Positions 15,273 to 30,535 of a stretch of 40,000 bases of DNA are shown one piece after another. Both the position numbers and the translations under genes were made by a program. Source of the DNA: Noviherbaspirillum sp. ST 5-3 (lineage in GTDB: Bacteria > Pseudomonadota > Gammaproteobacteria > Burkholderiales > Burkholderiaceae_D). A model generated the notes under the pieces. The model ran no database searches and was not told the DNA's origin. It worked only from the letters and a program-made list of their open reading frames with translations. The stretch covers positions 8,698 to 48,697 of the forward strand of contig NZ_CP176528.1 in assembly GCF_046267815.1 (NCBI RefSeq). Direction: 5' to 3'. The number at the start of each line of letters is the position of its first letter. Within the stretch, counting starts at the first letter, position 1.

Positions 15273-15426
15273 GGTCTCGGCATATTCAGTGTCCCGGTTC
15301 TTGCATGTCCTGCAATTTGAAATAAATGCTTCTTTCTGACAGCCTGTTGACAGCTTCAGATTGCTAAAGTCCACATACACCCGGAGCGGTCTGCGTATCC
15401 GGGAAGATGACAAAGGAGAAGACAAA

Positions 15427-16401
15427 ATGAAAAAACTGTATTGCGCACTTGCGCTGAGCCTCTGCGTTGGAGCGGCCGTGGCCGGCCCGTTCGACAAGAC
15501 CGAATGCATCGCCGGCGCCAAACCCGGCGGCGGCTTCGACCTGACCTGCCGTCTCGCGCAGAGCGGCCTGTTCGACGCGCACCTGATCAAGGACCCGATG
15601 CGCATCACCTACATGCCGGGCGGCATCGGCGCCGTGGCCTACAACGCGATTGTCGGCCAGCGTTCGGCGGAGCCGAATACCATCGTGGCCTACTCCGGCG
15701 GTTCACTGCTCAATATCGCGCAGGGCAAGTTCGGCAAGTACACCGAGAACGACGTGCGCTGGCTGTCGATCGTCGGCGCCGATTACGGCGTGGTCGCGGT
15801 GCGCAAGGATTCGCCCTACAAGTCGCTGAAGGATCTGGCCGCGGCGCTCAAGGCCGACCCGAGCAAGATCGTGTTCGGCGCAGGCGGCACGGTGGGCAGC
15901 CAGGACTGGATGAAAGCCGCCCTGACGGCCAAGATCGCCGGCGTCAGCCACAAGACGATGCGCTTCGTTGCCTTTGAAGGCGGCGGCGAAGCGATGTCCG
16001 CACTGCAGGGCGGACATGTGCAGGTGTATTCCGGCGACGCGTCCGAACTTTCTTCGCAGATGAAGGCCGGCGCCAACGTGCGTTTGCTCGCGGTGTTCGC
16101 CGACAAGCGCCTGCCGGGCGAGCTGGCCGAGGTGCCGACCGCCAAGGAGCAGGGCTATGACGTGGAATGGCCGATCGTTCGCGGCTTCTACATGGGGCCG
16201 AAGGTCAGCGATGCGGATTTCAATGCATGGACCGAAGCTTTCAACAAGATGATGCGCACGCCGGAGTTCGCCAAGGTGCGTGAAGAACGCGGCATGTATC
16301 CGTTCTCGATGACCGGCCCTATGCTCGACACCTACATCAAGCGCTACGTGCAGCAATACCGCAAGCTGGCGGAAGAGTTCGGGCTGGTCGGAGCGAAATG
16401 A
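15427..16401 (+). CDS. tctC: Tripartite tricarboxylate transporter substrate-binding protein (Bug/TctC family)
   Basis: Signal peptide MKKLYCALALSLCVGAAVA. Bug-family length and sequence. Followed by tctB and tctA. Confidence 0.85.
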   Translation: MKKLYCALALSLCVGAAVAGPFDKTECIAGAKPGGGFDLTCRLAQSGLFDAHLIKDPMRITYMPGGIGAVAYNAIVGQRSAEPNTIVAYSGGSLLNIAQGKFGKYTENDVRWLSIVGADYGVVAVRKDSPYKSLKDLAAALKADPSKIVFGAGGTVGSQDWMKAALTAKIAGVSHKTMRFVAFEGGGEAMSALQGGHVQVYSGDASELSSQMKAGANVRLLAVFADKRLPGELAEVPTAKEQGYDVEWPIVRGFYMGPKVSDADFNAWTEAFNKMMRTPEFAKVREERGMYPFSMTGPMLDTYIKRYVQQYRKLAEEFGLVGAK

Positions 16402-16838
16402 TGAGCGACCGCATCCTCGGCTTGCTGGCCATCCTGGTGGCCGGCAGCATGGCGGTGGGCGCCTGGGGCTATGTCGCACCGGTGGAGTATGAACCGGTCG
16501 GCCCGCGCGCCTTTCCTCTGCTGCTTGCTTTCGCCATGGCCGTCTGCGGCGGCTGGCTCGCGCTACGACCGGGGCTGCCGGTCGACTGGCCGCGCGGCGC
16601 GCAATTGCTGCACATTGCGATCTGCGCCGGCGCCGTCCTCGCCTACGTCGCACTGTTCCAGACGCTGGGTTTCGTGATCGCGACCGCGCTGATGGCACTG
16701 CCGGTCGGACGCGTGTTCGGCGGCAGCTGGCGACAGTGCGCGCTGGGCGGCATCGGTCTGGGCATCCTGCTGTACGTGCTGTTCGATCGCTTGCTCGACG
16801 TCGTGCTGCCGCTGGGCATTCTTCACTGGATTGGTTGA
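16398..16838 (+). CDS. tctB: Tripartite tricarboxylate transporter small membrane subunit TctB
   Basis: 146-aa protein with four TM segments. The start overlaps the tctC stop (ATGA). Confidence 0.8.
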   Translation: MMSDRILGLLAILVAGSMAVGAWGYVAPVEYEPVGPRAFPLLLAFAMAVCGGWLALRPGLPVDWPRGAQLLHIAICAGAVLAYVALFQTLGFVIATALMALPVGRVFGGSWRQCALGGIGLGILLYVLFDRLLDVVLPLGILHWIG

Positions 16839-16845
16839 GGGGAAT

Positions 16846-18357
16846 ATGGAAACTTTGTCACACCTGGCCACCGGCTTCGGCGTCGCGATGCAGCCGATGA
16901 ACCTGCTGCTGGCGACCCTCGGCGCATTCCTGGGCACCGTGGTCGGCCTGCTGCCCGGCCTCGGGCCGATCAACGGCGTCGCCATCCTGATGCCGCTGGC
17001 CTTCGCGCTGAAGCTGCCGCCGGAAGCATCGCTGATCCTGCTTGCCGCCGTCTACATCGGCTGCGAATACGGCGGGCGCATCTCGTCCATCCTGATCAAC
17101 GTCCCCGGCGACGCCGGCGCGATCATGACCGCGCTCGACGGTTATCCGATGGCCAAGAAGGGATTGGGCGGCGTGGCGCTGTCGATCTCGGCCTGGAGCT
17201 CCTTCGTCGGCTCGATCGTGGCGACCATCGGCATTGCGATCGCGGCGCCGCTGCTGGCGCAGTGGGCACTGGCTTTCGGCCCGGCGGAATACTTCGGACT
17301 GATGATCTTCTCCTTTGCCTGCATCGCGGGACTGATCGCGGACCAGCCGGTGAAGGCCGTGCTGGCCACCATCATCGGCCTGTCGCTGTCGACCATCGGC
17401 GTGGATGCCAACTCGGGCGTGTATCGCTTCACCTTCGACTCGGTGCACCTGGGCGACGGCATCCAGTTCATCGTGGTGGTGATCGGCCTGTTCTCGGTCA
17501 GTGAAATCCTGCTGATGCTGGAGCACGCCTTCCACGGACCGGCCACCATCCCCGACACAGGGCGCAACATGTTCAACCTGCAGGAGATGGCCTACACTTG
17601 GTGGGGAACCCTGCGGTCCTCCGTAGTGGGCTTCGTGGTCGGCGTGCTGCCCGGCGCTGGCGCCACCGTGGCCAGCGCGATTACCTACTCGATGGAAAAG
17701 CGCCTGACCGACAAGGAAGGCACCTTCGGCACCGGCGACATCCGCGGTGTCGCGGCGCCCGAGGCGGCGAACAATTCGGCCGCCAACGGCTCCTTCGTAC
17801 CGATGCTCACGCTCGGCATTCCCGGTTCGGGCACGACCGCGGTGATGATGGGCGCGCTCACCCTGTACAACATTACGCCCGGCCCCGCGCTGTTCCAGCA
17901 GGAGCCGAAGCTGGTGTGGGGCCTGATCGCATCGATGTTCGTCGGGAACGTCATCTTGCTGATCATGAACATTCCGCTGGCGGGCATCTTCACGCGCATG
18001 CTGAAGGTGCCCAACTGGGCCCTGGTGCCGGGCATCATGGCGGTGAGCGCGGTCGGCGTGTACGGCGTGCACGCGACCACCTTCGACCTGGTGCTGATGG
18101 CGGCCTTCGGCATCCTCGGCTATCTGCTGCGCAAATGCCAGGTGCCGATGGCGCCGCTGATCCTCGGATTCGTGCTTGGCGACATCATGGAGCAGAACCT
18201 GCGCCGCGCGCTGTCCATCACGAATGGCGAGGTCTCGATCCTGTGGCAAAGCCCGATCTCGATCGGACTGTGGTTGTCGGCAGTGGCGATGGTGTTCGGG
18301 CCGCGCCTGTATCGCAAGCTCAGGCGGCAGCCGGCGGTGGTGGGGGCTGCGGCGTAA
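16846..18357 (+). CDS. tctA: Tripartite tricarboxylate transporter large permease TctA
   Basis: About 500-aa polytopic membrane protein with the TctA-typical N-terminus METLSHLATGF...LLATLGAFLGTVVGLLPGLGP. Confidence 0.9.
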   Translation: METLSHLATGFGVAMQPMNLLLATLGAFLGTVVGLLPGLGPINGVAILMPLAFALKLPPEASLILLAAVYIGCEYGGRISSILINVPGDAGAIMTALDGYPMAKKGLGGVALSISAWSSFVGSIVATIGIAIAAPLLAQWALAFGPAEYFGLMIFSFACIAGLIADQPVKAVLATIIGLSLSTIGVDANSGVYRFTFDSVHLGDGIQFIVVVIGLFSVSEILLMLEHAFHGPATIPDTGRNMFNLQEMAYTWWGTLRSSVVGFVVGVLPGAGATVASAITYSMEKRLTDKEGTFGTGDIRGVAAPEAANNSAANGSFVPMLTLGIPGSGTTAVMMGALTLYNITPGPALFQQEPKLVWGLIASMFVGNVILLIMNIPLAGIFTRMLKVPNWALVPGIMAVSAVGVYGVHATTFDLVLMAAFGILGYLLRKCQVPMAPLILGFVLGDIMEQNLRRALSITNGEVSILWQSPISIGLWLSAVAMVFGPRLYRKLRRQPAVVGAAA

Positions 18358-18414
18358 TCGCAGTCTAGGAGCGCCGCCGGTTTGCCAGGGTGATGGCGTG
18401 TAGTCACTACTCGA

Positions 18415-18469
18415 TCCATGAAAGACACGAAGAAATCTTGCTTTGCATTTTTTCGTGTTTTTCGTGGAC
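18415..18469. repeat. REP-like hairpin element, degenerate copy 1
   Basis: TCCATGAAAGACACGAAGAAA ... TTTTTCGTGTTTTTCGTGGA is an imperfect inverted repeat of the CACGGAAA-type unit. Confidence 0.6.
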
Positions 18470-18520
18470 GATAGTAGTTCATGCAGATGAATTTAAGCGG
18501 CGCGGCGGAACGCTATGGAT

Positions 18521-18579
18521 GTCCACGGAAAGCACGGAAGACACGGAAAGATGCAATACTTTTTGTGCCTTTTGTGGAC
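18521..18579. repeat. REP-like hairpin element, degenerate copy 2
   Basis: GTCCACGGAAAGCACGGAAGACACGGAAAG ... CTTTTTGTGCCTTTTGTGGAC. The left arm matches the 32303 copy. The right arm is decayed. Confidence 0.6.
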
Positions 18580-18889
18580 CGTCATGATTTCCCTTCCATA
18601 GAGCAGAAACTGCTTTTAACAAAAGCATGGAAGACACTCGGCGTGTCTCGCAAAATGCAGACAGTCCAAGGACGCATGTAACAGTCGCTTGTGGTCATCC
18701 AGTCCGGTTCTTCGTCTGCAGCCATTACAGTAACTTGTCATCAACGTCTCCGTCACTTTAAGCAAGTGCATCAAGCTGGGGACGGTCCGCTAAGGGGGCG
18801 AAGCCGGCTGTCACAAGAAAATAATGACGGACAGAAATCGGCCAGGAGCCGTCATACGAGGCATGGTGTTCTTGCTCCATAGCGGCCGT

Positions 18890-19890
18890 TCAGCACGAAC
18901 TTGGCAGATCGATGGGTGAGGAAACACCCCGGCCACCCTTGTTCAAAACATGCGCATACACGATGGTGGTCGACACATCCGCATGGCCAAGTAGCTCCTG
19001 AACTGTCCGGATGTCGTAGCCGGCCTCAATCAAATGAGTCGCAAAGCTATGCCGAAAGGTATGGCTGGATGCACGCTTGGTCAGCTTCGCCGCCAATACC
19101 GCACGTTTGACTGCCCGCTGGATGGTTTGCTCGTACAAATGGTGCCGACGAACGATACCGGTGCGGGGATCGGTCGATTCATGATCCGAAGGAAATGCCC
19201 AATACCAGCTCCATTGCGTGCCGGCAGACGGATATTTTCGCTCCAACGCATCCGGCAGCATGACACCGTTGCGGCGGTTCAGGCGATCCACCTCATACAG
19301 CGACTTTGCATATGCCAGCTGTTCCCGCAACGGCTGAACCAGGGACAACGGCAGCATGGTCAAGCGGTCCTTGCCGCCTTTGCCTCGCCGGATGGTGATC
19401 TCCCTTCGCTGGAAATCAATATCCTTGATCCGCAGCTGGGCACATTCCATCAATCGCATGCCGGTGCCGTACAGAAGTCTGGCAATCAACAGGTAAACAC
19501 CGTCCATCTGCGCAAAAATCCGATCGATCTCCTGGCGGGTCAGCACGGTGGGCTGGCGCGGCGGCTTCGACGGCTTGGGCAAGTCATCGATCCACGGCAA
19601 CTCCACTTTCAGCACGTGCTTGTAGAGGAACAGCAGGGCACACAGTGCCTGATGGTGAGTCGAGGTTGAGACGCTTCGTTCGTTGGACAAGTAGGACAGG
19701 AAGGCGTGGATTTCCGGTCCTCCCATATCGGCGGGATGGCGGAGCTGGTGAAAGCGGATTTACCATCTGGCCCAATACACGTAGACGCGTTCGGTCCGTA
19801 GGCTATAGTGCTTATCTCTAAGGCAACGTCGTAGCTGGTCGAGCAGTTTCGGTGGTTGCCCGACAGAAGCGGAATCAGGGGCGATTTTCA
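18890..19890 (-). pseudogene. intI: Integron integrase IntI with a single in-frame TAA (19759-19761)
   Basis: - Conceptual translation from GTG 19890: [74 protein letters not shown]...
- From memory, this is collinear with IntI1 along its whole length.
- It includes the IntI-specific insertion (ALERKYPSAGTQWSWYWAFPSDHESTDPRTGIVRRHH).
- It also has the catalytic R...K...HxxR...H...Y contexts (GTGMR, GKGGKDR, HTFRHSFATHL, LLGHADV, IVYAHV). Confidence 0.9.
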
Positions 19891-19899
19891 CGTTAATTA

Positions 19900-19919
19900 A
19901 CACTGTATGAAGATACAGT
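19900..19919. promoter_or_regulatory. LexA (SOS) box in front of intI
   Basis: CACTGTATGAAGATACAGTA matches CTGT-N8-ACAG exactly (core 19902-19917). It lies about 10 nt upstream of the intI GTG. That is the position where LexA boxes overlap PintI in described integrons. Confidence 0.7.
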
Positions 19920-20022
19920 ATTGTGCGGTATGCTAGAGGGCATGCGGCTTGCGAAGGATCAAGCGAAATGGTTTATCGGGCACTACCCTGTTTTATCAGT
20001 CAGACCAAGCCTTTGAAATCTA

Positions 20023-20029
20023 GTTATGC
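20023..20029 (+). other. attI recombination core (GTTATGC) at the attI/cassette-1 junction
   Basis: This is the first GTTRRRY-like core downstream of intI. The TTATGC that follows the G is the exact complement of the R'' box of cassette 1 (GCATAAC). The extent of the rest of attI (about 19920-20022) is not defined. Confidence 0.65.
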
Positions 20030-20032
20030 ATC

Positions 20033-20311
20033 ATGAATAAGCAGCTCTACAACGCACCGCCGTCACCTGGGAGCCGCAGGATTCTCGGTCAGGGGTGTTT
20101 TGTCTTTGGCCTTTCAATGATCGCTTTCGGGATCTACCTATTTGTCGACGGATTTAATTGGCCACTTGGCGGTAGAGAGCGAACGATCGACATAATACTC
20201 ATGATGATTTTCGGACCGCAGTATGCGTCGCTGGCCATGGTTTGGTTTTTCATTGGGCTGGGTATCGTTGTGGGGTACAAAGGGCTAAAAATGTGGTGCA
20301 AAGATGCATAA
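20033..20311 (+). CDS. Cassette 1: small membrane protein (92 aa, 2-3 TM), unknown function
   Basis: ORF filling cassette 20024-20356. Hydrophobic stretches CFVFGLSMIAFGIYLFV and ASLAMVWFFIGLGIVVG. The stop lies inside the R'' box. Confidence 0.6.
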   Translation: MNKQLYNAPPSPGSRRILGQGCFVFGLSMIAFGIYLFVDGFNWPLGGRERTIDIILMMIFGPQYASLAMVWFFIGLGIVVGYKGLKMWCKDA

Positions 20312-20362
20312 CGAGTTATTCAACGCTGACGCGCAAGCGCGCCGTTTAACAAGGCGTTAGCC
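20306..20362 (+). other. attC of cassette 1
   Basis: R'' GCATAAC ... imperfect palindrome (..CAACGCTGACGCGC AAGC GCGCGCCGTTTAAC..) ... R' GTTAGCC. Confidence 0.75.
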
Positions 20363-20402
20363 GCCAAAACTATTCGCTGCCTATTTTCAGATTGGAACAA
20401 GA

Positions 20403-21272
20403 ATGGGTACTTGGGGATCTGGAATCTACGATGACGACTTCGCCGCGGACCTTAGAAATTCTGTAGCCATCGTATGTAAGGTTCCTTCCGGCGGCGATCG
20501 CCTCACGGAAATACTGTTGCAACTGCACGGAATCACATCGGAAAGCGAGGACGAAACTACATTTTGGCTCGTGCTTGCCGATCAGTTTGAGCGCAGAGGG
20601 ATCGAATGCCCTGGCGTATTTACCACTGCACTATCCATCATCGAAAGTGGGGCGGACCTGAGTCGCTTGAAGGACCAAGATGCGGATGAGCGCTTTCTGA
20701 AAAAGCGCGCCGTCGTACTCGAAGCACTCGCCACCCGGCTCCGGGCTCCGCGCCCATTCCGCCCCAGATCTATGCCCCGAAAGCCGCCCGATCTTGTGCT
20801 AGAAGTTGGATCGGTTTTCGCCTTTCCAACCATGAATGGTTTTGCATGTAGTCCGTGGCGCCTTCCCCGCGACGGCCCCTTTGCGACGAACGGATGGGGA
20901 GCTTTTGTCGTCCTCGATTGCGGCCGTGCCTTTGATTGGCTTCCATGGTGCGCGCTGGCCTCGCTGACCGTTGAACCTTCCAGAAAGCCGACGATAGACG
21001 ATGCAATTCACGCGAATCTAATCTTTCACCTTCAAACCGACGGCGCGGCAAGATGTGTCCCAAAACGGTCCGACGCAAAGACGATGCAGTTGGAGCTAAT
21101 TGGCCGCATCGCCCTAGACCCGAATTGCGTCAAGCCACATCTCTCGAAGTGGAGTATTAACGATGCTATTGAATGCGGGTGGTCAATCGCAAATGCCGGC
21201 TACTCCACTTCAGTACAAGGCCTTCCACGTGGTCCTCAACTACTTTCCCTTATGGCACGAAATGTCGGCTAA
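20403..21272 (+). CDS. Cassette 2: hypothetical protein (289 aa); N-terminus resembles DUF4259 (from memory)
   Basis: The ORF fills cassette 20357-21356. It starts MGTWGSGIYDDDFAADL. The family assignment is tentative. Confidence 0.6.
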   Translation: MGTWGSGIYDDDFAADLRNSVAIVCKVPSGGDRLTEILLQLHGITSESEDETTFWLVLADQFERRGIECPGVFTTALSIIESGADLSRLKDQDADERFLKKRAVVLEALATRLRAPRPFRPRSMPRKPPDLVLEVGSVFAFPTMNGFACSPWRLPRDGPFATNGWGAFVVLDCGRAFDWLPWCALASLTVEPSRKPTIDDAIHANLIFHLQTDGAARCVPKRSDAKTMQLELIGRIALDPNCVKPHLSKWSINDAIECGWSIANAGYSTSVQGLPRGPQLLSLMARNVG

Positions 21273-21362
21273 CCGGTCGTTGCAGCCGACCGCCCAAAAG
21301 CTGCGCTTTTGGGTCCCCTCGTCGCTACGCTCCTCGGCGGCGGCTGAACTTGGACGTTAAAA
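21267..21362 (+). other. attC of cassette 2 (long type, 96 bp)
   Basis: R'' GGCTAAC, spacer CGGTC, L'' GTTGCAGCC ... CCCAAAAGC TGC GCTTTTGGG ... L' GGCTGAAC, spacer TTGGAC, R' GTTAAAA. The R'' box complements the cassette start TTAGCC. Confidence 0.8.
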
Positions 21363-21365
21363 ATC

Positions 21366-21665
21366 ATGGACGCTGGTTATGTACTTGTTGCGGGTCTAAT
21401 TGCCGGATTGGTCGGCATGAACATAGCCGCGACACTTAAGGTGCATGCCAGCAGCTTTTACGAGAAAAAGCAGAAGTCGATACAGTACATCCTGATTTGG
21501 CTGGTGCCGGTACTGGGCGCAATTCTCTGCTATGGATTGGCGCGACAGAATGATGGCCCGCACAGCGGAAAATATTCCGAAGATACGTCTTTATATGATG
21601 ATGGAAACGTCGGTGTCGAAAATGCGAACATCGACTACTTCGGTGGAGGGCATCACAGTGATTAA
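21366..21665 (+). CDS. Cassette 3: small membrane protein (99 aa, 2 TM), unknown function
   Basis: The ORF fills cassette 21357-21719. TM stretches GYVLVAGLIAGLVGMNIA and YILIWLVPVLGAILCYGL. Confidence 0.6.
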   Translation: MDAGYVLVAGLIAGLVGMNIAATLKVHASSFYEKKQKSIQYILIWLVPVLGAILCYGLARQNDGPHSGKYSEDTSLYDDGNVGVENANIDYFGGGHHSD

Positions 21666-21671
21666 CCAGAT

Positions 21672-21725
21672 TTTTAACACGTCGCTCGACACCCACGCAA
21701 TGCGTGGGTCAGCTCAGCGTTATGC
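21672..21725 (+). other. attC of cassette 3
   Basis: R'' TTTTAAC, ACGTC, L'' GCTCGAC, ACCCACGC AATGC GTGGGT, L' CAGC, TCAGC, R' GTTATGC. There is an extrahelical base in L''. The R'' box complements the cassette start TTAAAA. Confidence 0.85.
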
Positions 21726-22111
21726 AGCTAACTAAAGTCGATCCCATGGCACTGAGGCAAAGAGTCGAGGCAGAGTTTCACGGCTACGCGCAGTGCTATG
21801 AGGCGCCACCAACCAGCACAACGGTTGGCACGCCATGGACAAAAGAAAAAGTGAAGATTGAAGTGGATCGTATGGCAGCGCTGCTTGTTGATCCGTACCC
21901 CGTACACTATGAGTCCGGGGATGAAATGGTGCCTTCTGAGCAGCGCCTTGTCGGCCGGCGCTCTGCCTTTGTTGTGGCCGAGGACGATCCTTATGTGCTT
22001 CTTTTCGACCATGATGCGGAGGATTTCGTTTTGGCGTACAGAAGTGATGATGGTCAATTGAGCGCATGGGGTCTGCGTGGTGATGCAGCTAGCACCTTCC
22101 TTGCACGCTGA
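21722..22111 (+). CDS. Cassette 4: hypothetical protein (129 aa)
   Basis: ATG placed inside the R' core (GTTATGC) because the cassette starts at 21720. The track start at 21704 would lie in the previous attC. No family recognised. Confidence 0.55.
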   Translation: MQLTKVDPMALRQRVEAEFHGYAQCYEAPPTSTTVGTPWTKEKVKIEVDRMAALLVDPYPVHYESGDEMVPSEQRLVGRRSAFVVAEDDPYVLLFDHDAEDFVLAYRSDDGQLSAWGLRGDAASTFLAR

Positions 22112-22117
22112 GACGCT

Positions 22118-22174
22118 GCATAACATGACAATCGACACTGACCGCTTTGCGGCCGGTCATTTAACACGTTAAAA
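22118..22174 (+). other. attC of cassette 4
   Basis: R'' GCATAAC ... TGACCG CTTTGC GGCCGGTCA ... R' GTTAAAA. The R'' box complements the cassette start TTATGC. Confidence 0.8.
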
Positions 22175-22185
22175 GTACAAGACCA

Positions 22186-22428
22186 ATGAAGATATTTGGC
22201 TACGAAGCCGGAGGTGGAGATGGAGCTGAGATTCGACCAGCTGCACTGGATGAAATCACGCTTCAGGCAAGTCCGGCCGAACTTAGAAAAATTGCTGCCT
22301 TCTTGAATGCTTGTGCAGACGGAATAGAAACCCGAGGCAAGGATTGGGAGCACGAGCACCTATCAGACAGAGTAAAGGAGTTTGAAGGTTCGCCTCATTT
22401 TGTTGTCTTCAATCCGGAGGCGGTATGA
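22186..22428 (+). CDS. Cassette 5: hypothetical protein (80 aa)
   Basis: The ORF fills the cassette that starts at 22169. No family assigned with confidence. Confidence 0.55.
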   Translation: MKIFGYEAGGGDGAEIRPAALDEITLQASPAELRKIAAFLNACADGIETRGKDWEHEHLSDRVKEFEGSPHFVVFNPEAV

Positions 22429-22432
22429 AGAC

Positions 22433-22485
22433 TTTTAACACGTCGTTGCACACCCATGCCTCCGGCCTGGGTGAACTCAAGCGTT
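22433..22485 (+). other. attC of cassette 5, 5' part; the R' core is split by the IS and continues at 24227-24233
   Basis: R'' TTTTAAC, ACGTC, L'' GTTGCAC ... L' GTGAAC, TCAAGC, GTT | IS | GTTAGCC. The left half is near-identical to attC 3. Confidence 0.8.
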
Positions 22486-22584
22486 GAAGCTGTAGAAAAA
22501 CCCTTTTTCGAAAGGGCGAGGGCGCACGAAGCAGTATGCCAATTTGCGCTTCGAGCCGATTGAGTCAATTCGGGAAGTGAACGA

Positions 22585-22615
22585 GACAAAGGCAAGCCAT
22601 GCGCTTGCCTTTGTC
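22585..22615 (-). terminator. Perfect 13-bp hairpin immediately after the transposase stop
   Basis: GACAAAGGCAAGC CATGC GCTTGCCTTTGTC. It ends 1 nt from the stop codon (22617-22619) and lies inside the IS. Confidence 0.4.
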
Positions 22616-22616
22616 G

Positions 22617-24137
22617 TTACTGCGCATAACCGTGATGCGCGAGCTTCTCGATGTTATGCACCAGGCAGAACAGCTTCCACTGCACGTCAACTTTGATACG
22701 ACCGCGCAGCGTGAAGCGGTTGAGCTTCTTGTTGTGACGCAGGTTGCCGAACACCGGTTCCATGATCCCCAAGCGCCTGCCATACAAGGATCTGCCCTGT
22801 GGCGAATCGATACGCCGCTTCATCCGGTCGGTATGGCTTTCTGCGACGGCCTTGCCGAGGAAGATCGCTACCTGCCTTGTCTTGGTCTTGTCCGGCGTGC
22901 GCAGGCACTTGTCACGATGTGTGCAAGGCAAGCAGTCGCGCTGCGCTCCCTGGAATTTGATGGCCGCATAACCATTGATGCGGCAGTTGCTGCCGGTCCG
23001 GTACAGTTTCTTGCCCGCCGGGCAGATGCAGGTCTTGTGTTTTGGGTCGTAGCTGAAATGCCGCGCCTGGTACAGGCGCTTGCCATCGTCCGGTGCGCTC
23101 TTGTTGTAGAGAGGATCGGGTTGCTGTTTGTGCCTGTCCTGGGTGGCAAAGCGCTCGTCGCGTGAGCGCATGTTGTTGTCCGCAATGAGCGCATTCACTC
23201 CCATCGCATCGAGTGCCTTCAGGTTGGCTTCGCTGTGATAGCCGGCATCTGCCGTGAGGATCGAATCATCGGTGATCAGGCCATGGATCGCCTCGACCAT
23301 CGGCATCAACAGCTCCTGTTCGCTGCCGGTGCCGTGCGCTTGCGCTTCCACGATCACCTGATGCTTGCCGTCGACGGCGGCCACACCGGCATAGCCTTGA
23401 ATGACGCCTTTGGAGGTCGCCATCTTGGCGCTGTCGCCGTCGGTGCGATTACTCTTGCGTACACTGCCCTTGCTGCCGCGCCGCTCCTCTGGATGGGCAC
23501 TCAGCCATTGTCGGATTTGCGCAGCTTCGCGTTCGAGCGATGCTACGCGCTGCGCCGCCTTTGCTTCCAGGCCTGCTTCAATGGAAGACTTGTCGGCGTG
23601 TTGATGGCGTGCCAGCATGGCTTGCGCCGCGGCTTCCAACTTCTCGACCTGGCGCTCGAAGTCGGCGCGCGTACCGCTCTTGCTCTTGGAGGCATTGCTT
23701 GGCAGTTTCACGCCATCAATGGCGAACATCTCGCGCCCGATCAAGCCTTGGCGATCACAGATAAACAGCACCTGGCTGAAGATACGGCTGATGTCCTCGC
23801 CCAACGTACTGACAAAATCGGCGATGGTGGTGAAATGCGGTGCATGGTCGCCGCACAGGGCGATGAATGTCACTTGTTCCCGGCAGGCGCGCTCGATGGC
23901 GCGGCTGCTGACAATGCCCCGCGAATAACCGAACAGGATGACCTTGAGCAGCAGGGCAGGCGGATAAGCAGGAGCGCCGGTGTCGTCGTTGCGAAAGCGT
24001 GCATCCAGATTGGAAAGGTCCATCTCATGGTCGAGCAGATGGTTCAACGCATGTTCGAAGGTGCCCGGCAAAAGCTGCCGCGAGAGGTCAATCGGCAGAA
24101 AGCGCGGATTGGTATCAATGTGCTTGTAACGGGCCAT
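22617..24137 (-). CDS. DDE transposase (DUF772-type N-terminus, IS1182/IS5-superfamily)
   Basis: 506 aa. N-terminus ...GAPAYPPALLLKVILFGYSRGIVSSRAIERACREQVTFIALCG. A central coiled-coil insert, then DAGYHSEANL. C-terminus ...FCLVHNIEKLA. Confidence 0.85.
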   Translation of the reverse strand: MARYKHIDTNPRFLPIDLSRQLLPGTFEHALNHLLDHEMDLSNLDARFRNDDTGAPAYPPALLLKVILFGYSRGIVSSRAIERACREQVTFIALCGDHAPHFTTIADFVSTLGEDISRIFSQVLFICDRQGLIGREMFAIDGVKLPSNASKSKSGTRADFERQVEKLEAAAQAMLARHQHADKSSIEAGLEAKAAQRVASLEREAAQIRQWLSAHPEERRGSKGSVRKSNRTDGDSAKMATSKGVIQGYAGVAAVDGKHQVIVEAQAHGTGSEQELLMPMVEAIHGLITDDSILTADAGYHSEANLKALDAMGVNALIADNNMRSRDERFATQDRHKQQPDPLYNKSAPDDGKRLYQARHFSYDPKHKTCICPAGKKLYRTGSNCRINGYAAIKFQGAQRDCLPCTHRDKCLRTPDKTKTRQVAIFLGKAVAESHTDRMKRRIDSPQGRSLYGRRLGIMEPVFGNLRHNKKLNRFTLRGRIKVDVQWKLFCLVHNIEKLAHHGYAQ

Positions 24138-24239
24138 GGGAGAACCTCCTTGTTTCTCCCATAGACTGGTTATTGTGATAACAGTTCGAGCGTGGCAAGA
24201 TGCAGAGATACTTTTTATACAGCTTCGTTAGCCGTCTTG

Positions 24240-24929
24240 ATGCCCATGCGTTCGCAATTTCATCGTCAGACTGAAATAGCTCGTATACGTGCCGAGCTGG
24301 AGCTGAAAGGCTTACCTCGCCTCAAAATGCTGCTCATCATCACGCTTACTGGCGGTGCAGGTTTTCTTGCTTCGTTTTCGATGCTCCGCTGTTGCGTAAC
24401 GTCAATGGCCATTCGCTATCCTGTGTCCATTGCCATCGCCTATGTCGTATTCTTATTTTTTCTCTGGCTTTGGCTCAGAACGTCTGCCGAGGATTACACC
24501 GATTTCCCAGATCTTTCTGGCATTCCAACTTGCCGGAATGTTCCGACCGATTGCTCAGAGCTTCACTCGGTGGCGTCGGCCGATGGCGGATCAATATCCG
24601 ACACAATTGGTGCAGCCGCCAGCGCGGATGAAGTCGCAATTCCTCTTCTCGTTTTGTTAGTAGTCGGCGCATTGCTGCTCTCATCGCTTTGGATCGTTTA
24701 TACGGCGCCTACGCTATTCGCCGAATTGCTGGTTGACGGAGCCCTTTCCGCTAGCCTTTACCGAAGGCTTCGGGGCCTCGACACCCAGCATTGGTTGGCC
24801 ACTGCTATCAGCCGTACTATCTGGCCGTTCGTCATAACGGCGGTCATCGCCGGTTTCGGCGGTAAGGCTCTACAGTTTTGTGTTCCCACAGCCTACTCAC
24901 TTGGCGAGGTAATACACTGGCATGAGTGA
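24240..24929 (+). CDS. Cassette 6: polytopic membrane protein (229 aa), unknown function
   Basis: Start moved to the ATG at 24240 (MPMRSQF...) because the track start at 24192 lies inside the IS. Several TM stretches (LLIITLTGGAGFLASF, VSIAIAYVVFLFFLWLWL, IPLLVLLVVGALLLSSLWIV, IWPFVITAVIAGFGG). Confidence 0.6.
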   Translation: MPMRSQFHRQTEIARIRAELELKGLPRLKMLLIITLTGGAGFLASFSMLRCCVTSMAIRYPVSIAIAYVVFLFFLWLWLRTSAEDYTDFPDLSGIPTCRNVPTDCSELHSVASADGGSISDTIGAAASADEVAIPLLVLLVVGALLLSSLWIVYTAPTLFAELLVDGALSASLYRRLRGLDTQHWLATAISRTIWPFVITAVIAGFGGKALQFCVPTAYSLGEVIHWHE

Positions 24930-24935
24930 GCAGAC

Positions 24936-25000
24936 GGCTAACCTCTCGGTCAACCGGACCTCGCGCATAAAGCCGCGCGAGGTCAGTTACCTCAAACGTT
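24936..25000 (+). other. attC of cassette 6, 5' part; the R' core is split by the MITE and continues at 25109-25115
   Basis: R'' GGCTAAC, CTCTC, L'' GGTCAAC, CGGACCTCGCGC ATAAAGC CGCGCGAGGTC.., L' GTTACC, TCAAAC, GTT | MITE | GTTAGGC. The R'' box complements the cassette start TTAGCC. Confidence 0.85.
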
Positions 25001-25108
25001 GAAGCTGTAGAGAAAACCCAAAAATGCCATTCTTGCTAATTCTCAAGCCAAGGGAATCAATGACTTACGCCGCTAAAAAAACCGCAAAACGACTTTTCCT
25101 ACAGTCTC
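25001..25108. mobile_element. 108-bp MITE sharing its termini with the IS at 22486-24226
   Basis: The left end GAAGCTGTAGAGAAAACCC matches the IS end GAAGCTGTAGAAAAACCC. The right end, reverse-complemented, is GAGACTGTAGGAAAAGT against the IS end GAAGCTGTATAAAAAGT. There is no ORF. It is flanked by GTT/GTT and has the same orientation as the IS. Confidence 0.75.
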
Positions 25109-25120
25109 GTTAGGCAGAAC

Positions 25121-25573
25121 ATGTCACGCGAAGGCGATCTCATCAGACGCGAGTTGAAGAAGCATGTGATTCCTCGGTTGGAGGAACTTGGCTTTTCAGG
25201 AAAAGGGCTGTACTTTCAACGAAAACGTGAGGTCTTAGATCTTTTGGATTTCCAGTATTGGAAGTACGGGGGAGAGTTCTTGCTTGAATTCGCGTCGTGT
25301 GAGCTAGGCGATCTTAAGACGTCTTGGGGCGAGATTGTGCCTGAGAATAAAATCACCGTGGCGCATATTTCCCCATTGAAGAGGGCGCGCCTACAGCAGC
25401 AGGGGCCAACACGGGGAAAGAATTTCGGGGGATTTGCATTCGAAGGCTTCGCGGATGACCAAGAACGATACGAGTCACTGGCGCGACAAGTAGCAATGCT
25501 CCTGCCTCAAGTCGATCTTTGGCTTCGTATTAGGGAGGTCGGTTCACATGTGCACGTACTTGGAGCTGCCTAA
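25121..25573 (+). CDS. Cassette 7: hypothetical protein (150 aa); resembles DUF4304 (from memory)
   Basis: The ORF fills the cassette starting at 25110. The N-terminus ...HVIPRLEELGFSGKGLYFQRKRE is of DUF4304 style. The stop lies inside the R'' box. Confidence 0.6.
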   Translation: MSREGDLIRRELKKHVIPRLEELGFSGKGLYFQRKREVLDLLDFQYWKYGGEFLLEFASCELGDLKTSWGEIVPENKITVAHISPLKRARLQQQGPTRGKNFGGFAFEGFADDQERYESLARQVAMLLPQVDLWLRIREVGSHVHVLGAA

Positions 25574-25619
25574 CATTTTGATCAACGCCGACGGCTGCGT
25601 CGCCGGTTATCGCGAACGT
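25568..25619 (+). other. attC of cassette 7 (terminal), 5' part; the R' core is split by the group II intron and continues at 27455-27459
   Basis: R'' GCCTAAC, ATTTT, L'' GATCAAC, GCCGACGG CTGC GTCGCCG, L' GTTATC, GCGAAC, GT | intron | TGACC. The architecture is the same as attC 6. The R'' box complements the cassette start TTAGGC. Confidence 0.8.
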
Positions 25620-27454
25620 GTGTGCCGGGCATGGCACGTAACTATGCAGGTGCAAGTCCTGCAGCCAGGTTTTCGTAGAGCCGAAGGCTAGGAGAACGGC
25701 AAGGGCGTCGCCGCGAGGCGGGGTCTGAAGGAAGCCGAATCCAAAACTGCGGGGCGACGAACAGAAACCGGATATGAGGCGTGATGCATTCGGGGCGAGC
25801 GGGCACGTGACTGCGAAGCCCTCCATCTACGATTGGGATGCATTTTGTAAATCCGGCGCTCGCGCAGTGAAAGTGACGTGTCTTACCCCGGGAGGCCTGT
25901 CCGGTGCCACAGGAGTGGCTGGGAACTGAGAGATTGGTTTTGACCGCCGGGCAGGAGTCAGCAGAAGGCATAGTAGGTGCAAGGCCCTGCACCGAAGGCC
26001 GGAACAATAAATGATGCCAAACCTTGTAATGAGAAACGGGACTGCCCCTGATCGACAGCTAACGCTGCCGCTGGCCGAAAGGCCAGAGGGTGAACTCGTG
26101 GCTGGAGAGCAAGGGCTTCGTGCATCAACGGAAGACCTTACCCTGATGGCGCAGATACTCGCACGCGAGAATCTGAAACGCGCCTTGAAGCAGGTTCGTC
26201 AGAATCAGGGCGCACCGGGCATCGACGGCATGACGGTCGATGAACTTCCGGCGTACCTGAAACAGCATTGGCCGGAAATACGCGCCCAACTGGAGGCGGG
26301 ACAATACCACCCGCAAGCGGTCAAGCGCGTGGAAATTCCCAAGCCCGACGGCAAGAAACGGCCATTGGGCATTCCGACCGTGTTGGACCGCTTCATTCAG
26401 CAAGCCATTGCGCAAGTAATACAAGCGCAATGGGAACCGGCATTCCACGCCGACAGTTACGGCTTTCGACCCAACCGGAATGCACATCTGGCTATCTGGC
26501 AGGCGCAACGCACTATCCGTGAAGGCCATGGCTGGGTGGTGGATATCGACCTTGAAGCGTTCTTCGACCGCGTCAATCATGACCGGCTGATGCAGCGGCT
26601 CAAGCAGCATGTTCCCGACCGGCAGGTACTGCGGCTCATCAACCGCTATCTGAAGGCGGGGGTGCGGATTGGCAGCCAAACACAGGCAACGACAGCAGGC
26701 GTGCCGCAAGGCGGCCCACTGTCTCCGGTGGTAGCCAATGTCGTGCTGGATGAACTGGACTGGGAACTGGACAAGCGCGGCCATCGCTTTGCCCGCTATG
26801 CGGATGATTGCAACATCTTCGTGCGCAGTCAGCGTGCCGGCGAAAGGGTGATGGCAAGCATAGAGCGTTTCGTGCGTGACCGGCTGAAGCTCACAGTCAA
26901 TTCACGCAAGAGCGCAGTCGACCGACCATGGAATCGAAAATTCCTGGGCTTTACCATCAGCGCCAAGACCAAAGTGAAAGTGGCCGAACAGGCCATCTTC
27001 AAGCTCAAGGCGAAGGTAAAGGAGTTGACCCGTCGTACCAGAGGCCACCGTTTGAGCGATATCATCGTGGAGCTGAGAGAAACCCTGCTTGGTTGGAAAG
27101 CGTATTTCGGCATTGCCGAGGTACTGAGCCCTCTGCGGGATATAGACAAATGGATACGACGGCGGTTACGCTGCTATCAATGGAAACAATGGGGGCGAGC
27201 GGGATACCGTGAGCTGAGAAAGCGCGGTGTGACTGTGCGAGAAGCATGGAACTGCAGCAAATCGGCGCATGGACCTTGGCGCATCAGTATGGCTCCAGCC
27301 TTGCTGCTTGCGATGCCGAACCGATTGTTTCGCCAAATGGGGCTGCCTTCACTGGCAGCATGAGATCAACCGTATTTATTGAACCGCCGTGTACGTGACC
27401 CGTATGCACGGTGGTGTGGGAGGGAGGGGCTGCGAGGCTTCTTCCTATCCCGAT
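25620..27454 (+). mobile_element. Group II intron (bacterial, En-less, class C-like), 1835 bp
   Basis: - 5' end GTGTGCC (GUGYG).
- Intron-encoded RT/maturase ORF in the position of domain IV.
- Domain V-like hairpin at 27383-27415 (ACCGCCGTGTACG TGACC CGTATGC[AC]GGTGGT) with a 2-nt bulge on the 3' strand.
- Domain VI-like stem with a bulged A (..CCTATCCC) ending ..CGAT at 27454. Confidence 0.85.
26011..27363 (+). CDS. Group II intron reverse transcriptase/maturase (no endonuclease domain)
   Basis: RT blocks ...GAPGIDGMTV..., RPLGIPTVLDRFIQQA, GVPQGGPLSPVVANVVL and FARYADDCNIFV (YADD), followed by the maturase X region. It ends without a D/En domain. Confidence 0.9.
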   Translation: MMPNLVMRNGTAPDRQLTLPLAERPEGELVAGEQGLRASTEDLTLMAQILARENLKRALKQVRQNQGAPGIDGMTVDELPAYLKQHWPEIRAQLEAGQYHPQAVKRVEIPKPDGKKRPLGIPTVLDRFIQQAIAQVIQAQWEPAFHADSYGFRPNRNAHLAIWQAQRTIREGHGWVVDIDLEAFFDRVNHDRLMQRLKQHVPDRQVLRLINRYLKAGVRIGSQTQATTAGVPQGGPLSPVVANVVLDELDWELDKRGHRFARYADDCNIFVRSQRAGERVMASIERFVRDRLKLTVNSRKSAVDRPWNRKFLGFTISAKTKVKVAEQAIFKLKAKVKELTRRTRGHRLSDIIVELRETLLGWKAYFGIAEVLSPLRDIDKWIRRRLRCYQWKQWGRAGYRELRKRGVTVREAWNCSKSAHGPWRISMAPALLLAMPNRLFRQMGLPSLAA

Positions 27455-27720
27455 TGACCGGCCGCTTTCCCGTATTTAGCCGACGGTGGCGAAGACCACC
27501 GGACTGAATGCATACTTCGCCGATCACGCTGAAAACGAACATCGGAGCATGCAAAGGACTTATTCCGTGCCTTCCATGTATTCCGCGGACATCCATCACG
27601 TCCTCGATTTCCCCTGATGTCAGACCGCCGCCGACGCGGTGAACAGCCCTCTCGAACCGGCTGGATAAAGCCTGTCGCATGGGCTAAGCTGACAGGATTT
27701 CCAACCCTGATCTGAACGCG

Positions 27721-28743
27721 ATGACCAAGAAGACAATCCCCGCTACCCTTATTCCCGGCGATGGCATCGGCCCCGAAGTCACCGCGGCCACCGTCAAGGC
27801 GCTGGAGGCGCTCGGCAGCCCCTTTGCGTGGGAGACGCAGTACGCCGGCATGGCCGGTGTCGAGCGCTGCGGCGATCCGCTGCCGCAGGAGACGCTGGAC
27901 AGCATCCGCCGCAATGGGCTGGCCTTGAAAGGTCCGCTGACCACGCCGGTCGGCGCGGGGTTCCGTTCGGCCAACGTGCGCATGCGCGAGGCCTTCAAGC
28001 TGTTCGCCAATGTGCGTCCGGTGCGCACCATCATTCCCGGCCGCTACGAAGACATCGACATCGTGCTGATCCGCGAGAACATCGAAGGCTTGTACGTCGC
28101 GCATGAACACTTCATCCCGGTCGGCGACGACCCGCAGGCGGTGGCGGTTTCCACCGGCGTGAATACGCGCGAAGGCGCGCGCCGCATCGCGCGCTATGCC
28201 TTCGAGTACGCGGTCAAGCATGGGCGCAAGAAGATCACCATCGTGCACAAGGCCAACGTGCTGAAAGCCTTGACCGGCATCTTCCTGGAAGCCGGGCGCG
28301 AGGTGGCCAAGGAATACGAAGGCCGGGTTGCGGTCGATGACCGCATCGTCGATGCCTGCGCGATGCAGCTGGTGCTCAATCCCTGGCAGTTCGACATGCT
28401 GCTGTGCACCAACCTGTTCGGCGACATTTTGTCAGATGAGCTGGCCGGACTGGTCGGCGGATTGGGGCTGGCGCCCGGCGCCAACATCGGCAAGGACGCG
28501 GCGATCTTCGAGGCGGTGCATGGCTCCGCGCCGGACATCGCAGGCAAGGGCCTGGCCAATCCGATATCGCTGTTGCTGGCCGCCGGCCTGATGCTGGATC
28601 ACGTCGGGCAGAGCGATCTGGCGACACGCCTGCGCAACGGCATCCAGCAAACCCTGATGGAAGACCAGGTCCGCACCCGCGATCTCGGCGGCAGCGCCTC
28701 GACCGACGAATTCACCGCGGCCCTGGTCAAGCGCCTCGCCTGA
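27721..28743 (+). CDS. Isocitrate/isopropylmalate dehydrogenase-family NAD(P)-dependent dehydrogenase
   Basis: IPGDGIGPEV N-terminus, IRENIEGLY and NLFGDILSDELAGLVGGLGLAPGAN motifs. 340 aa. Confidence 0.85.
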   Translation: MTKKTIPATLIPGDGIGPEVTAATVKALEALGSPFAWETQYAGMAGVERCGDPLPQETLDSIRRNGLALKGPLTTPVGAGFRSANVRMREAFKLFANVRPVRTIIPGRYEDIDIVLIRENIEGLYVAHEHFIPVGDDPQAVAVSTGVNTREGARRIARYAFEYAVKHGRKKITIVHKANVLKALTGIFLEAGREVAKEYEGRVAVDDRIVDACAMQLVLNPWQFDMLLCTNLFGDILSDELAGLVGGLGLAPGANIGKDAAIFEAVHGSAPDIAGKGLANPISLLLAAGLMLDHVGQSDLATRLRNGIQQTLMEDQVRTRDLGGSASTDEFTAALVKRLA

Positions 28744-28860
28744 AGCGCCCTGCGGGCGCGCTCAGGAAAACAAATCTTTCCGATGCTACACTGGACGCAG
28801 CTTCGCGCTGCGTCGGTGGCATCCTGAATCCGGCCGGCGCGTTTCACTCTCAGGGAAAAC

Positions 28861-29841
28861 GTGAAAGACGCTGCGACACCATCCGGGATAGAAACCGAGC
28901 TCGAAAAATATCGTCGCCTGTTCCGCTCGATGCCGGACTATGCGACCTTCTCCATTCTGAAGACGGGCGAGTTCATCGACGTCAATCCCGGCTTCGAACG
29001 GCTGACCGGCTATCGGCGTGACGAAGTCATCGGCCGGACCTCGGCCAGCATCGATCTCTGGGTGCATCCCGAACATCGCGCGGCAATTGTCCAGCGCTTG
29101 CAGACGACGGAGACGACCTCCATCGAGACCCAGTTCCGCGACCGCTCCGGCAACATCTACGACGTGGATGCCTCCATGGCCATCTTCAACGTCAATGGCG
29201 AGGCATTGCTGGTGGCGACGGCGCGCGACGTGACCGCGCGCAAGCGCCAGGAGCAGGAGCTGGAGCAGTACCGCACGACGCTCGAAAAGCTGGTGGAACA
29301 GCGCACCATGGAGCTGGAATCGGCGATGCAAAAGCTCAAGGACCTGGCGGCGCATGATGAGCTGACGGGCGTCGGCAACCGGCGCGACCTCAACACCCAT
29401 CTTGAGCAGGAATGCGCGACATTCAAGCGGCTGGCCGTGCCGTCGAGCGTCGCAGTGTTCGACCTCGACAACTTCAAGATGGTCAACGACCGTTACGGCC
29501 ACGCGGCCGGCGACGAAGTGATCAAGGCATTTGCGCAGATCATCCGGCGCGAAATGCGGGTCGTCGATTATGTCGCGCGTTACGGCGGCGACGAGTTCGT
29601 GCTGCTGCTGAAAGGAATCACGGCGGAGGCGGCGCTGGTTCCGCTGGGCCGCATCCGCGAGGCGGTGCTGGCACATCCGTGGTCAGCGCTGATTCCGGAT
29701 GTCGCGCTGACGACCTCGATCGGCGTGGCCTCCTTCCATCCGTCCGAATCGGCGGACGACACCTTCCGCCGCGCCGACAAGGCCTTGTATCAGGCCAAGC
29801 TGGAGGGACGCAACCGGGTTGTCATCGCAGCGGCCCCATAG
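28861..29841 (+). CDS. PAS-domain diguanylate cyclase (GGDEF)
   Basis: N-terminal PAS region (..GFERLTGYRRDEVIGRT..), a coiled linker, then the GGDEF domain (HDELTGVGNRR ... RYGGDEFVLLL). GTG start; a slightly later start is possible. Confidence 0.8.
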   Translation: MKDAATPSGIETELEKYRRLFRSMPDYATFSILKTGEFIDVNPGFERLTGYRRDEVIGRTSASIDLWVHPEHRAAIVQRLQTTETTSIETQFRDRSGNIYDVDASMAIFNVNGEALLVATARDVTARKRQEQELEQYRTTLEKLVEQRTMELESAMQKLKDLAAHDELTGVGNRRDLNTHLEQECATFKRLAVPSSVAVFDLDNFKMVNDRYGHAAGDEVIKAFAQIIRREMRVVDYVARYGGDEFVLLLKGITAEAALVPLGRIREAVLAHPWSALIPDVALTTSIGVASFHPSESADDTFRRADKALYQAKLEGRNRVVIAAAP

Positions 29842-29994
29842 AGCGCCTATCAAAATGCTACTGCGCAGCCCGATCCTGAACCTGCGATGCTCACCGTACA
29901 TCACGTACGGCTGCGCTTCTCGATTCAGGCTAGGGCTGCTCGCTACGCATTTTGAAAGGCACTCTTGGCAAGCGCGGCGAGTGCTCATTCGCAC

Positions 29995-30177
29995 TTAGCT
30001 GCGCTCGACGGATTTCCTGTCCGATGCAGACGGCTGCGGGCGCAGCGCAGCCATCACCACCAGGCGTATGAGTTCCCTGTTCGTCTCCGCGTCCTCCCGG
30101 CGGGGATGACGCGGCAGCAGGCCTGCCTCGATCGCTTTCTTGATGGCCGCCTGCAGCATTTCATCAGTGAGGTTCAT
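29995..30177 (-). CDS. Small hypothetical protein (60 aa), third gene of the leader-peptide operon
   Basis: MNLTDEMLQAAIKKAIEAGLLPRHP..., with GAGG 6 nt upstream of the ATG. It starts 31 nt after the stop of the upstream peptide gene. No TM segment and no family recognised. Confidence 0.4.
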   Translation of the reverse strand: MNLTDEMLQAAIKKAIEAGLLPRHPRREDAETNRELIRLVVMAALRPQPSASDRKSVERS

Positions 30178-30208
30178 GGCGTACCTCGTCCTGGAACGGT
30201 TGCTATGC

Positions 30209-30472: not shown

Positions 30473-30535
30473 GCTGTTCTCCTTGAATGCGTTGCGAACG
30501 GGCGGAGGCATTCGGCGCCTCCGCCGCAAATTGGA

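Follow-up and report, generated by a model that had tools for sequence, protein, structure and literature searches.

Evidence for a seven-cassette chromosomal integron in Noviherbaspirillum sp. ST 5-3 with three insertions at the GTT of consecutive attC sites

A 40,000-nucleotide stretch of Noviherbaspirillum sp. ST 5-3 (contig NZ_CP176528.1), hereafter the window, was analyzed to characterize a locus with an integron integrase gene (intI) and an array of short open reading frames (ORFs). The segment at 18838-27460 is, with high confidence, a chromosomal integron of an IntI lineage that occurs in Noviherbaspirillum and further Oxalobacteraceae, and it has seven captured cassettes, three later insertions in attC sites, and a truncated IntI. 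The platform, made up of intI, a LexA-box-like operator, and attI, captured seven promoterless cassettes through IntI recombination between the G and the TT of attI and attC. With the crossover at this step, each cassette starts with the six bases needed to complete its own R' box. Later entries at the GTT of R' placed an insertion sequence (IS) in attC5, a 108-bp derivative in attC6, and a sense-oriented group II intron in attC7. A TAT>TAA change at codon 44 would truncate IntI, and without an integrase supplied in trans the array is probably frozen.

The integrase gene was identified from profile scores. The minus-strand frame 19891..18890 scored 446 bits with the "integron integrase" model TIGR02249 (cut-off of 265), with 313 of 315 profile positions aligned. 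Pfam domains in this frame are Phage_int_SAM_4 (N-terminal SAM-like) and Phage_integrase (catalytic), and the translation shows the catalytic motifs GMR and HxxR and the IVY tyrosine. Scores with the XerC and XerD models were 125–128 bits against cut-offs of ~330, and other recombinase models were also far below cut-off. An earlier note on this DNA had placed an IntI-type recombinase on the minus strand. The family assignment stands, but the 278-aa ORF taken as the gene (18890..19726) is only its C-terminal part, and the internal stop was missed. This ORF is the longest intact one in intI because the frame holds one stop codon. Codon 44 encodes an amino acid in all six relatives compared: TAT (Tyr) in L009, Tyr in L011, L012, and L091, Phe in L013, and Ser in L010. 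The remainder of intI is intact and 97% identical to the open 343-aa gene of L009, which together argue that inactivation was recent; a recent nonsense mutation is the simplest reading of the stop. The IntI recombinase is most likely inactive, and a product re-initiated at Met57 would miss the start of the SAM-like domain. The intact integrase gene expected of a complete integron is absent from this sequence. Inactivated intI genes are also common in Xanthomonas integrons. Integron integrases are under SOS control, and the CTGT-N8-ACAG palindrome upstream of intI resembles the LexA operator known for them, a function we presume it to have here.

The attC sites were identified with a covariance model. 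When the seven candidate bottom strands were folded one by one under DNA parameters, z-scores ranged from -0.7 to -3.8, a small advantage over shuffled sequence that did not discriminate attC sites. A loose motif (AAC-5-L''...L'-5/6-GTT, with 3-bp L pairing) found all seven sites but had 57–81 matches per strand and was rejected as a test. Because neither was convincing, a model (R1) was built from the aligned bottom strands of 14 attC sites that came only from other genomes (L009–L013 and L091), which were found by an IntI search of species-representative genomes. In the training alignment, 92.9% of cells in the R- and L-box pairs were paired and 6 pairs had changed on both sides, while slid controls gave 26–42%. 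With filters off, R1 produced exactly seven matches in the window, all on the minus (recombinogenic bottom) strand, with scores of 31–47 bits and E values of 5e-9 to 4e-5. These coincide with attC1 to attC4 as listed in the table and cover 22433-22489, 24936-25004, and 25568-25625 for attC5 to attC7. The next-best match was the palindromic opposite strand of attC1 (E 0.5). Each of the seven sites aligns to R1 over its full length and has the unpaired L'' base at its proper position. A covariance-model check had been proposed with IntegronFinder's model; run with R1 instead, it accepted 7 of 7 sites and no others below E 0.5. A search of the window at Rfam gathering thresholds returned group II intron domains only, and Rfam has no attC family.

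All seven sites have the same layout, which consists of nnnTAAC, 5 nt, an L'' arm, a variable stem, L', a 5–6 nt spacer, and GTT. The spacer between L' and GTT is 5 nt in attC1 and attC3 and 6 nt in the others. The canonical layout claimed for every ORF in the earlier note thus held for the order of its parts, but RYYYAAC is strictly present in only one of the four R'' types, and TAAC and GTT are the invariant bases. An extrahelical L'' base, reported for several sites, is present on the bottom strand in all seven (G in five and C in two). The sites are 54–96 nt long, with a mean pairwise identity of 58% and a maximum of 75%. One of them, attC4 (22117-22175), shares 88% identity with the first cassette's attC in a Noviherbaspirillum metagenome bin (L013, 9487-9545), and the adjacent ORFs are unrelated.

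Cassette boundaries follow from the complementarity between cassette ends. The first six bases of each cassette are the reverse complement of its own R'' box in 7 of 7 cases, and no cassette (0 of 7) has an R' box at its 3' end that matches its R''. With four R'' types, this rule is satisfied by only 8 of 5,040 cassette orderings. The 7 of 7 count given previously was reproduced by this upstream versus downstream comparison. Its description as an internal proof of boundaries claims too much novelty, as the rule is a standard consequence of the G/TT crossover (a slash marks a junction throughout) and the textbook definition of a cassette boundary. The rule also places the three interruptions, as AAGC GTT (22486-24226) GTT AGCC, AAAC GTT (25001-25108) GTT AGGC, and GAAC GT (25620-27454) T GACC, and comparison with other loci showed that these insertion points are right to the base.

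The array of seven plus-strand ORFs opposite intI is as previously described, with seven R1 sites and seven ORFs (80–289 aa). Searches of the cassette proteins with PADLOC, NCBIfam, and Pfam identified only an Imm32 immunity-protein family member in cassette 5 (PF15566, E 7e-9) and a weak DUF4304 match in cassette 7; no defense system was detected, and five of the seven ORFs matched no family. In cassette 4, an in-frame ATG (21722) lies within the R' box GTTATGC (21719-21725), so that joining of the cassettes may itself supply the start codon.

The boundary between the platform and the cassettes was defined by comparison with five related integrons (L009–L013). Identity to the window ends at AATCTAG/TTA, and a different cassette follows in each. 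The 1,189-bp intI-attI module (18838-20026) has 97% DNA identity to L009, and values for L010, L011, and L012 are 92%, 76%, and 75%. Two plus-strand promoter-like sites face the cassettes (19782-19809 and 19897-19924), the second of which overlaps the LexA-box-like palindrome, and the region is no richer in such sites than shuffled sequence. The earlier description of the ORFs as lacking promoters of their own rests on a simple consensus-level scan, which found one promoter-like site within the array, a count not above shuffles, and carries no statistical weight. The array is richer in AT than its surroundings, as had been noted, with a GC content of 0.53–0.54 (roughly 20–26 kb) compared to 0.60–0.65 in the flanks.

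Table. Features of the integron and its flanks (window positions). Sequence pairs in cassette rows are the first six bases of the cassette and its R'' box.
Feature	Position	Strand	Details
Left flank	15361..18838	plus	tctC, tctB, tctA 15361-18357 (Pfam); REP-like hairpins 18411-18470, 18521-18580
Terminator-like hairpin 3' of intI	18839..18851	minus	homology with L009 integron stops at 18838
intI, integron integrase pseudogene	18890..19891	minus	333 codons; GTG start 19891; one internal stop in translation
Premature stop TAA, intI codon 44	19762-19760	minus	single TAT>TAA change
LexA-box-like palindrome CTGT-N8-ACAG	19903..19918		12 nt upstream of intI start; kept in L009-L013
attI core GTTATGC	20023..20029	plus	crossover between G20023 and T20024
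Cassette 1	20024..20356	plus	ORF 20033-20311, 92 aa, no family; attC1 20306-20362; R1 31.8 bits, E 2.6e-5; TTATGC/GCATAAC
Cassette 2	20357..21356	plus	ORF 20403-21272, 289 aa, no family; attC2 21267-21362, 96 nt; R1 31.7 bits; TTAGCC/GGCTAAC
Cassette 3	21357..21719	plus	ORF 21366-21665, 99 aa; attC3 21672-21725; R1 37.5 bits; TTAAAA/TTTTAAC
Cassette 4	21720..22168	plus	ORF ends 22111, start uncertain; attC4 22118-22174; R1 47.4 bits, E 5e-9; TTATGC/GCATAAC
Cassette 5	22169..22485	plus	ORF 22186-22428, 80 aa, Imm32; attC5 22433-22485, R' completed by 24230-24233; R1 31 bits; TTAAAA/TTTTAAC
IS1182-family insertion sequence, 1741 bp	22486..24226	minus	GTT at 22483-22485 and 24227-24229
IS transposase	24137..22617	minus	506 aa, intact
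Cassette 6	24228..25000	plus	ORF 24240-24929, 229 aa, no family; attC6 24936-25000, R' completed by 25112-25115; R1 35.8 bits; TTAGCC/GGCTAAC across IS
MITE-like non-autonomous element, 108 bp	25001..25108		GTT at 24998-25000 and 25109-25111
Cassette 7	25110..25619	plus	ORF 25121-25573, 150 aa, weak DUF4304; attC7 25568-25619 and 27455-27459, R' GT/TGACC; R1 33.7 bits; TTAGGC/GCCTAAC across MITE
Group II intron GTGTG...CCCGAT	25620..27454	plus	between GT and T of attC7 R', sense orientation
Reverse transcriptase/maturase ORF	26011-27363	plus	TIGR04416 413 bits, intact
Right flank	27461..28743	plus	REP-like hairpin 27563-27601; Iso_dh-family gene 27721-28743 (Pfam Iso_dh)

Three kinds of insertion meet at the same trinucleotide, the GTT of R', in three consecutive sites. 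The first is an IS1182-family element, identified from a full-length DDE transposase and terminal inverted repeats. Its transposase scored 294 bits with NF033551 (cut-off of 270, positions 10–487 of 488) and has the Pfam domains DUF772, DDE_Tnp_1, and DDE_Tnp_1_6; the terminal inverted repeats are 15 nt long and 93% complementary (GAAGCTGTA[G/T]AAAAA). The second resembles a miniature inverted-repeat transposable element (MITE). Its left end differs from the IS end at 2 positions in 18, and from this similarity the 108-bp element is a derivative of the same IS group. Six related IS copies (73% protein identity) were all flanked as YTAAC/IS/AACG. No relative of the IS above 45% identity was found among PLSDB plasmids.

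JGI metagenome contigs were scanned with an IS end as the query (GARGCTGTAGAAAAACCC), which yielded at least 86 ends in at least 80 contigs. Among the matches listed, the flank 5' of the IS end was GTT in 48 of 86 (CGTT in 46), AAC in 31 (TAAC in 29), and another sequence in seven, so that 79 of 86 had GTT or AAC. This pattern is as would be expected for elements inserted in CGTT/A with GTT on both sides. Again among the matches listed, 44 GTT ends have 60 nt or more of flank, and in 25 of these an R1 attC match ends exactly at the element, compared to 0 of 31 AAC ends; half of the contigs hold attC matches, with up to eight per contig. We suggest, tentatively and with a little less than even confidence, that the IS and the MITE belong to an undescribed clade of IS1182 (DDE) elements that inserts specifically at CGTT/A of the attC R' box. 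This would be a third independent lineage of attC specialists, beside the IS1111-attC group and the attC-targeting group II introns, with the R' core as a shared hotspot. The searchable literature yielded no paper in which IS1182-family elements are described as targeting attC, only incidental co-mentions of IS1182 and attC.

Several other arrangements of these elements were observed. Paired and inverted IS-end matches ~158 bp apart in two metagenome contigs (L102 and L104) suggest similar short elements. One related IS copy (L005/L006, about 3990-5670) is in GCTAAC/GGC within a group II intron reverse-transcriptase gene and not in an attC. From this copy outside attC, the primary sequence CGTTAG, rather than the hairpin, may suffice as the target. 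In L003 (3920-9103), two related IS copies are inverted with identical outer flanks, either as a large inverted duplication or as an assembly artefact, and two attC matches lie just upstream. A uniform orientation of the IS relative to attC was considered and rejected, as the end that meets the hairpin is the transposase-distal one in close relatives and the proximal one in more distant relatives.

The third insertion is a group II intron. Rfam identified three intron pieces on the plus strand at 25707-27454 (RF02001 at 134.6 bits, RF01998, and RF00029). No endonuclease domain was found by Pfam in the intron protein, which has reverse transcriptase and maturase domains and accompanies a small ribozyme. 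Its closest plasmid relatives are 63–64% identical and occur in the class 1 integrons of pR148 and pPp47. The introns in these plasmids split the R' box GTTAGAT of the aadA1 and aacA4 attC sites between GT and T, and the GT/GTGTG...CCCGAT/T arrangement is as in the window. Exon junctions read GCGAACGT/TGACC in the window and TCAAGCGT/TAGAT and TCAAACGT/TAGAT in pR148 and pPp47, and the plasmid intron context reads TCAAGCGT/GTGTGTCGGGCATG...CCTATCCCGAT/TAGATGC. The plasmid junctions fix the window intron at 25620-27454, with GT+TGACC as the R' box of attC7. Both plasmid introns (L092, about 2975-4815, and L093, about 3075-4915) are in sense orientation at R' and have termini nearly identical to those in the window. 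From these junctions, the intron lineage is already present at the R' position in clinical class 1 integrons. The intron is apparently of class C.

The insertions would have different consequences for the sites they occupy. Both attC5 and attC6 keep a GTT at the hairpin (R' is now GTTGAAG) and may stay recombinogenic. If they recombine, the next cassette would carry the IS or the MITE along at its head. The corresponding position of attC7 reads GTG, so in the DNA this site has lost its GTT and is probably not recombinogenic. The sense-oriented intron could be spliced from the cassette transcript. The upstream promoter probably gives only poor expression of the cassettes that follow the IS, and the antisense transposase gene and its hairpins probably lower read-through into cassettes 6 and 7.

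These features could also be read as those of a decaying relic without function, in which the integrase is dead, the distal attC sites are destroyed, and the cassettes are drifting. We consider this doubtful, if possible. It would account for the nonsense codon, the interruption of three of the seven attC sites, and the five ORFs without a family match, but the recent date of the inactivation speaks against long decay, as intI is intact apart from one stop. All seven attC sites are still full-length matches to R1, all seven ORFs are open, and the proteins of the IS and the intron are intact as well.

The position and mobility of the integron were evaluated by comparison with related loci. It lies, as first described, between tctA with its repetitive extragenic palindromic (REP) elements and a gene of the IDH family: tctCBA and REP-like hairpins were found on the left and an Iso_dh-family gene on the right, with a response regulator and a PAS-GGDEF gene as further left and right neighbors. 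The location is chromosomal, without a transposon or plasmid backbone, the IS transposase has a 100% identical match in Herbaspirillum sp. ST 5-3 on a 5.79-Mb contig, and no transposition module or genes were found at the integron boundaries. From this position the earlier note had concluded that the integron is sedentary rather than transposon-borne. The absence of a transposition module agrees with that label, which is only partly supported: it does not follow from the flanks, because the attC sites are heterogeneous, the array is short (seven cassettes rather than a large array of highly similar sites), and the intI-attI module occurs elsewhere at 97% identity in another context.

The suggested comparison of the locus in related genomes was made for both flanks. 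The right junction is common to L089, a contig of a Noviherbaspirillum metagenome bin, with homology starting at 27461, six bases past the GT/T step (94.6% DNA identity and 99% identity of the Iso_dh protein). The intI-side flank was not found in L009–L014 or L091, and the right junction is common with this one relative only. Searches of L009–L017 using tblastn and blastn with tctA, Iso_dh, and all cassette proteins yielded intI only, and an exact-product look-up of TctA returned no record. L089 has one weak attC-like site (R1 16 bits; model R2 21 bits, E 0.013), which points the same way as those of the window and immediately precedes the right flank common to both loci, and its putative cassette fails the circular rule by eye. 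Since R1 and R2 miss most attC sites of the undoubted Noviherbaspirillum massiliense array, neither the presence of an array in L089 nor cassette turnover at this locus can be decided from these matches.

A recent acquisition or relocation of the platform, in which horizontal transfer or a rearrangement brought the intI-attI module, with or without cassettes, to the space between tctA and the Iso_dh-family gene, is unlikely in our estimate. The modules of L009 and L010 share neither flank nor cassette with the window, as expected of a moved module, although both come from metagenome bins of uncertain placement. Each relative diverges from the window within ~60 bp of the intI stop, just past the terminator-like hairpin, and N. 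massiliense (IntI 81% identical, at least 15 cassettes) has a cho-like gene and not tctA beside intI. Herbaspirillum sp. CPCC 101687 has two intI copies on different contigs (L011 and L012), which are 88% identical to each other in DNA and 86% to the window protein, each with its own cassettes. These differences in context, the heterogeneous attC sites, and the lower GC content of the array would all suit relocation, but no transposase, tni, resolvase, or terminal repeats occur at the platform boundaries. Inverted REP-like copies bracket the integron, although a REP-like element is also found at 32302-32376 and the right copy is in the flank conserved in L089, where the attC-like site precedes the same flank in the same orientation. 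IntI identity is 69–81% to named Noviherbaspirillum proteins and 94–97% to metagenomic ones, and the close homologues are all from Noviherbaspirillum or Oxalobacteraceae, the same bacterial family, as expected for lineage-specific chromosomal integrons.

That the locus is no integron at all, but a Xer-like or phage-type tyrosine recombinase beside genes separated by REP-type palindromes or terminators, is barely conceivable: it could draw on the weak folding z-scores, the dozens of chance matches to the loose R''/R' motif, and the REP-like hairpins nearby, but it is refuted by the integrase profile scores (far below cut-off for XerC and XerD and above it for the integron integrase model), by an independent attC model specific to the seven sites, and by the 7 of 7 versus 0 of 7 complementarity, which only G/TT cassette exchange explains, and the REP-like family differs from attC in sequence.

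Several points weigh against the interpretation of the locus as an integron with a truncated IntI and three later attC insertions. The GTT beside the IS may have arisen as a 3-bp target duplication or may belong to the IS terminus, and the sequence cannot tell these apart. The TAA at codon 44 could be a sequencing error, and an exact-product look-up of the 278-aa IntI ORF returned no record in the draft assembly for a cross-check. The coding status of five ORFs rests on their length and position because they match no family. Promoter evidence is at the level of consensus sites only, and recombination, expression, and the effect of the stop codon are all predicted from sequence.

Other observations concern the neighborhood and its assembly. 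The REP-like hairpins are built of tandem CACGGAA[AG] motifs and occur twice on the left flank, once on the right, and at 32302-32376. In the copy at 18521-18580, one arm has a G where the other has a T, which allows G-T pairing on one strand only and hints at a structure, in RNA or single-stranded DNA, that is specific to that strand. The window at 24585-38743 is 99.98% identical to a contig of the draft assembly GCA_004804275.1 that starts within the array (3 of 14,159 bases differ). Two residues of the intron-encoded protein also differ, perhaps because intron copies were collapsed in the draft, whose contigs are broken at the IS and the MITE. Within 2265-6461, a low-GC islet (49% at 4–6 kb) adjoins a CHAT-domain protease gene (2265-4181) and has a minus-strand ORF with an HNH-endonuclease domain (4865-5689) and two ORFs without a family match; it may be a separate acquired island.

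The locus is a further chromosomal integron from a bacterial family with annotated integron integrases, which changes little, and it is of modest interest in itself. It offers a worked example in which attI, seven cassettes, two transposon insertions, and one intron are fixed to the base and cross-checked at independent loci. The apparent attC specificity of the IS1182 clade is the lead most worth following. If the clade homes to the attC R' box, three unrelated chemistries target attC: DDE transposition, a DEDD enzyme with a guide RNA, and retrohoming. Such homing bears on the immobilization, silencing, and fusion of cassette arrays and on how integron-finding software handles split attC sites.

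Compared to known systems, the locus most resembles the betaproteobacterial and Xanthomonadales chromosomal integrons that IntegronFinder calls complete, with intI divergent from attI, promoterless same-strand cassettes that each end in attC, and a LexA-box-like site at the intI promoter. It differs from them in having only seven cassettes, heterogeneous attC sites, and a position not common to the relatives examined. The large array and homogeneous attC repeats of the Vibrio superintegron type are absent, and the resemblance to that type lies in a chromosomal location without a transposon backbone and in cassettes mostly of unknown function. The window IS is similar to the IS1111-attC group (ISPa21, ISPst6, and others) in its site-specific insertion within attC and in the recurrence of its relatives in many arrays. 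It differs in its DDE transposase of the IS1182 family, terminal inverted repeats, GTT on both sides, and MITE derivatives, whereas the IS1111 transposase is a DEDD enzyme guided by a seekRNA (PMC11187229). Classical IIC-attC introns run antisense to the cassettes and occupy R'' on the bottom strand (PMC3001079, PMC7923331), with the target consensus TTGT/T (PMC7923331). Like those introns (e.g., S.ma.I2), the window intron lies directly 3' of the attC hairpin at the GT/T step, but it and its plasmid relatives are on the top strand at R' in sense orientation. A sense-oriented case in Enterobacter cloacae is cited in PMC7923331, and because this case and the plasmid relatives share its orientation, the window intron belongs to a known kind.

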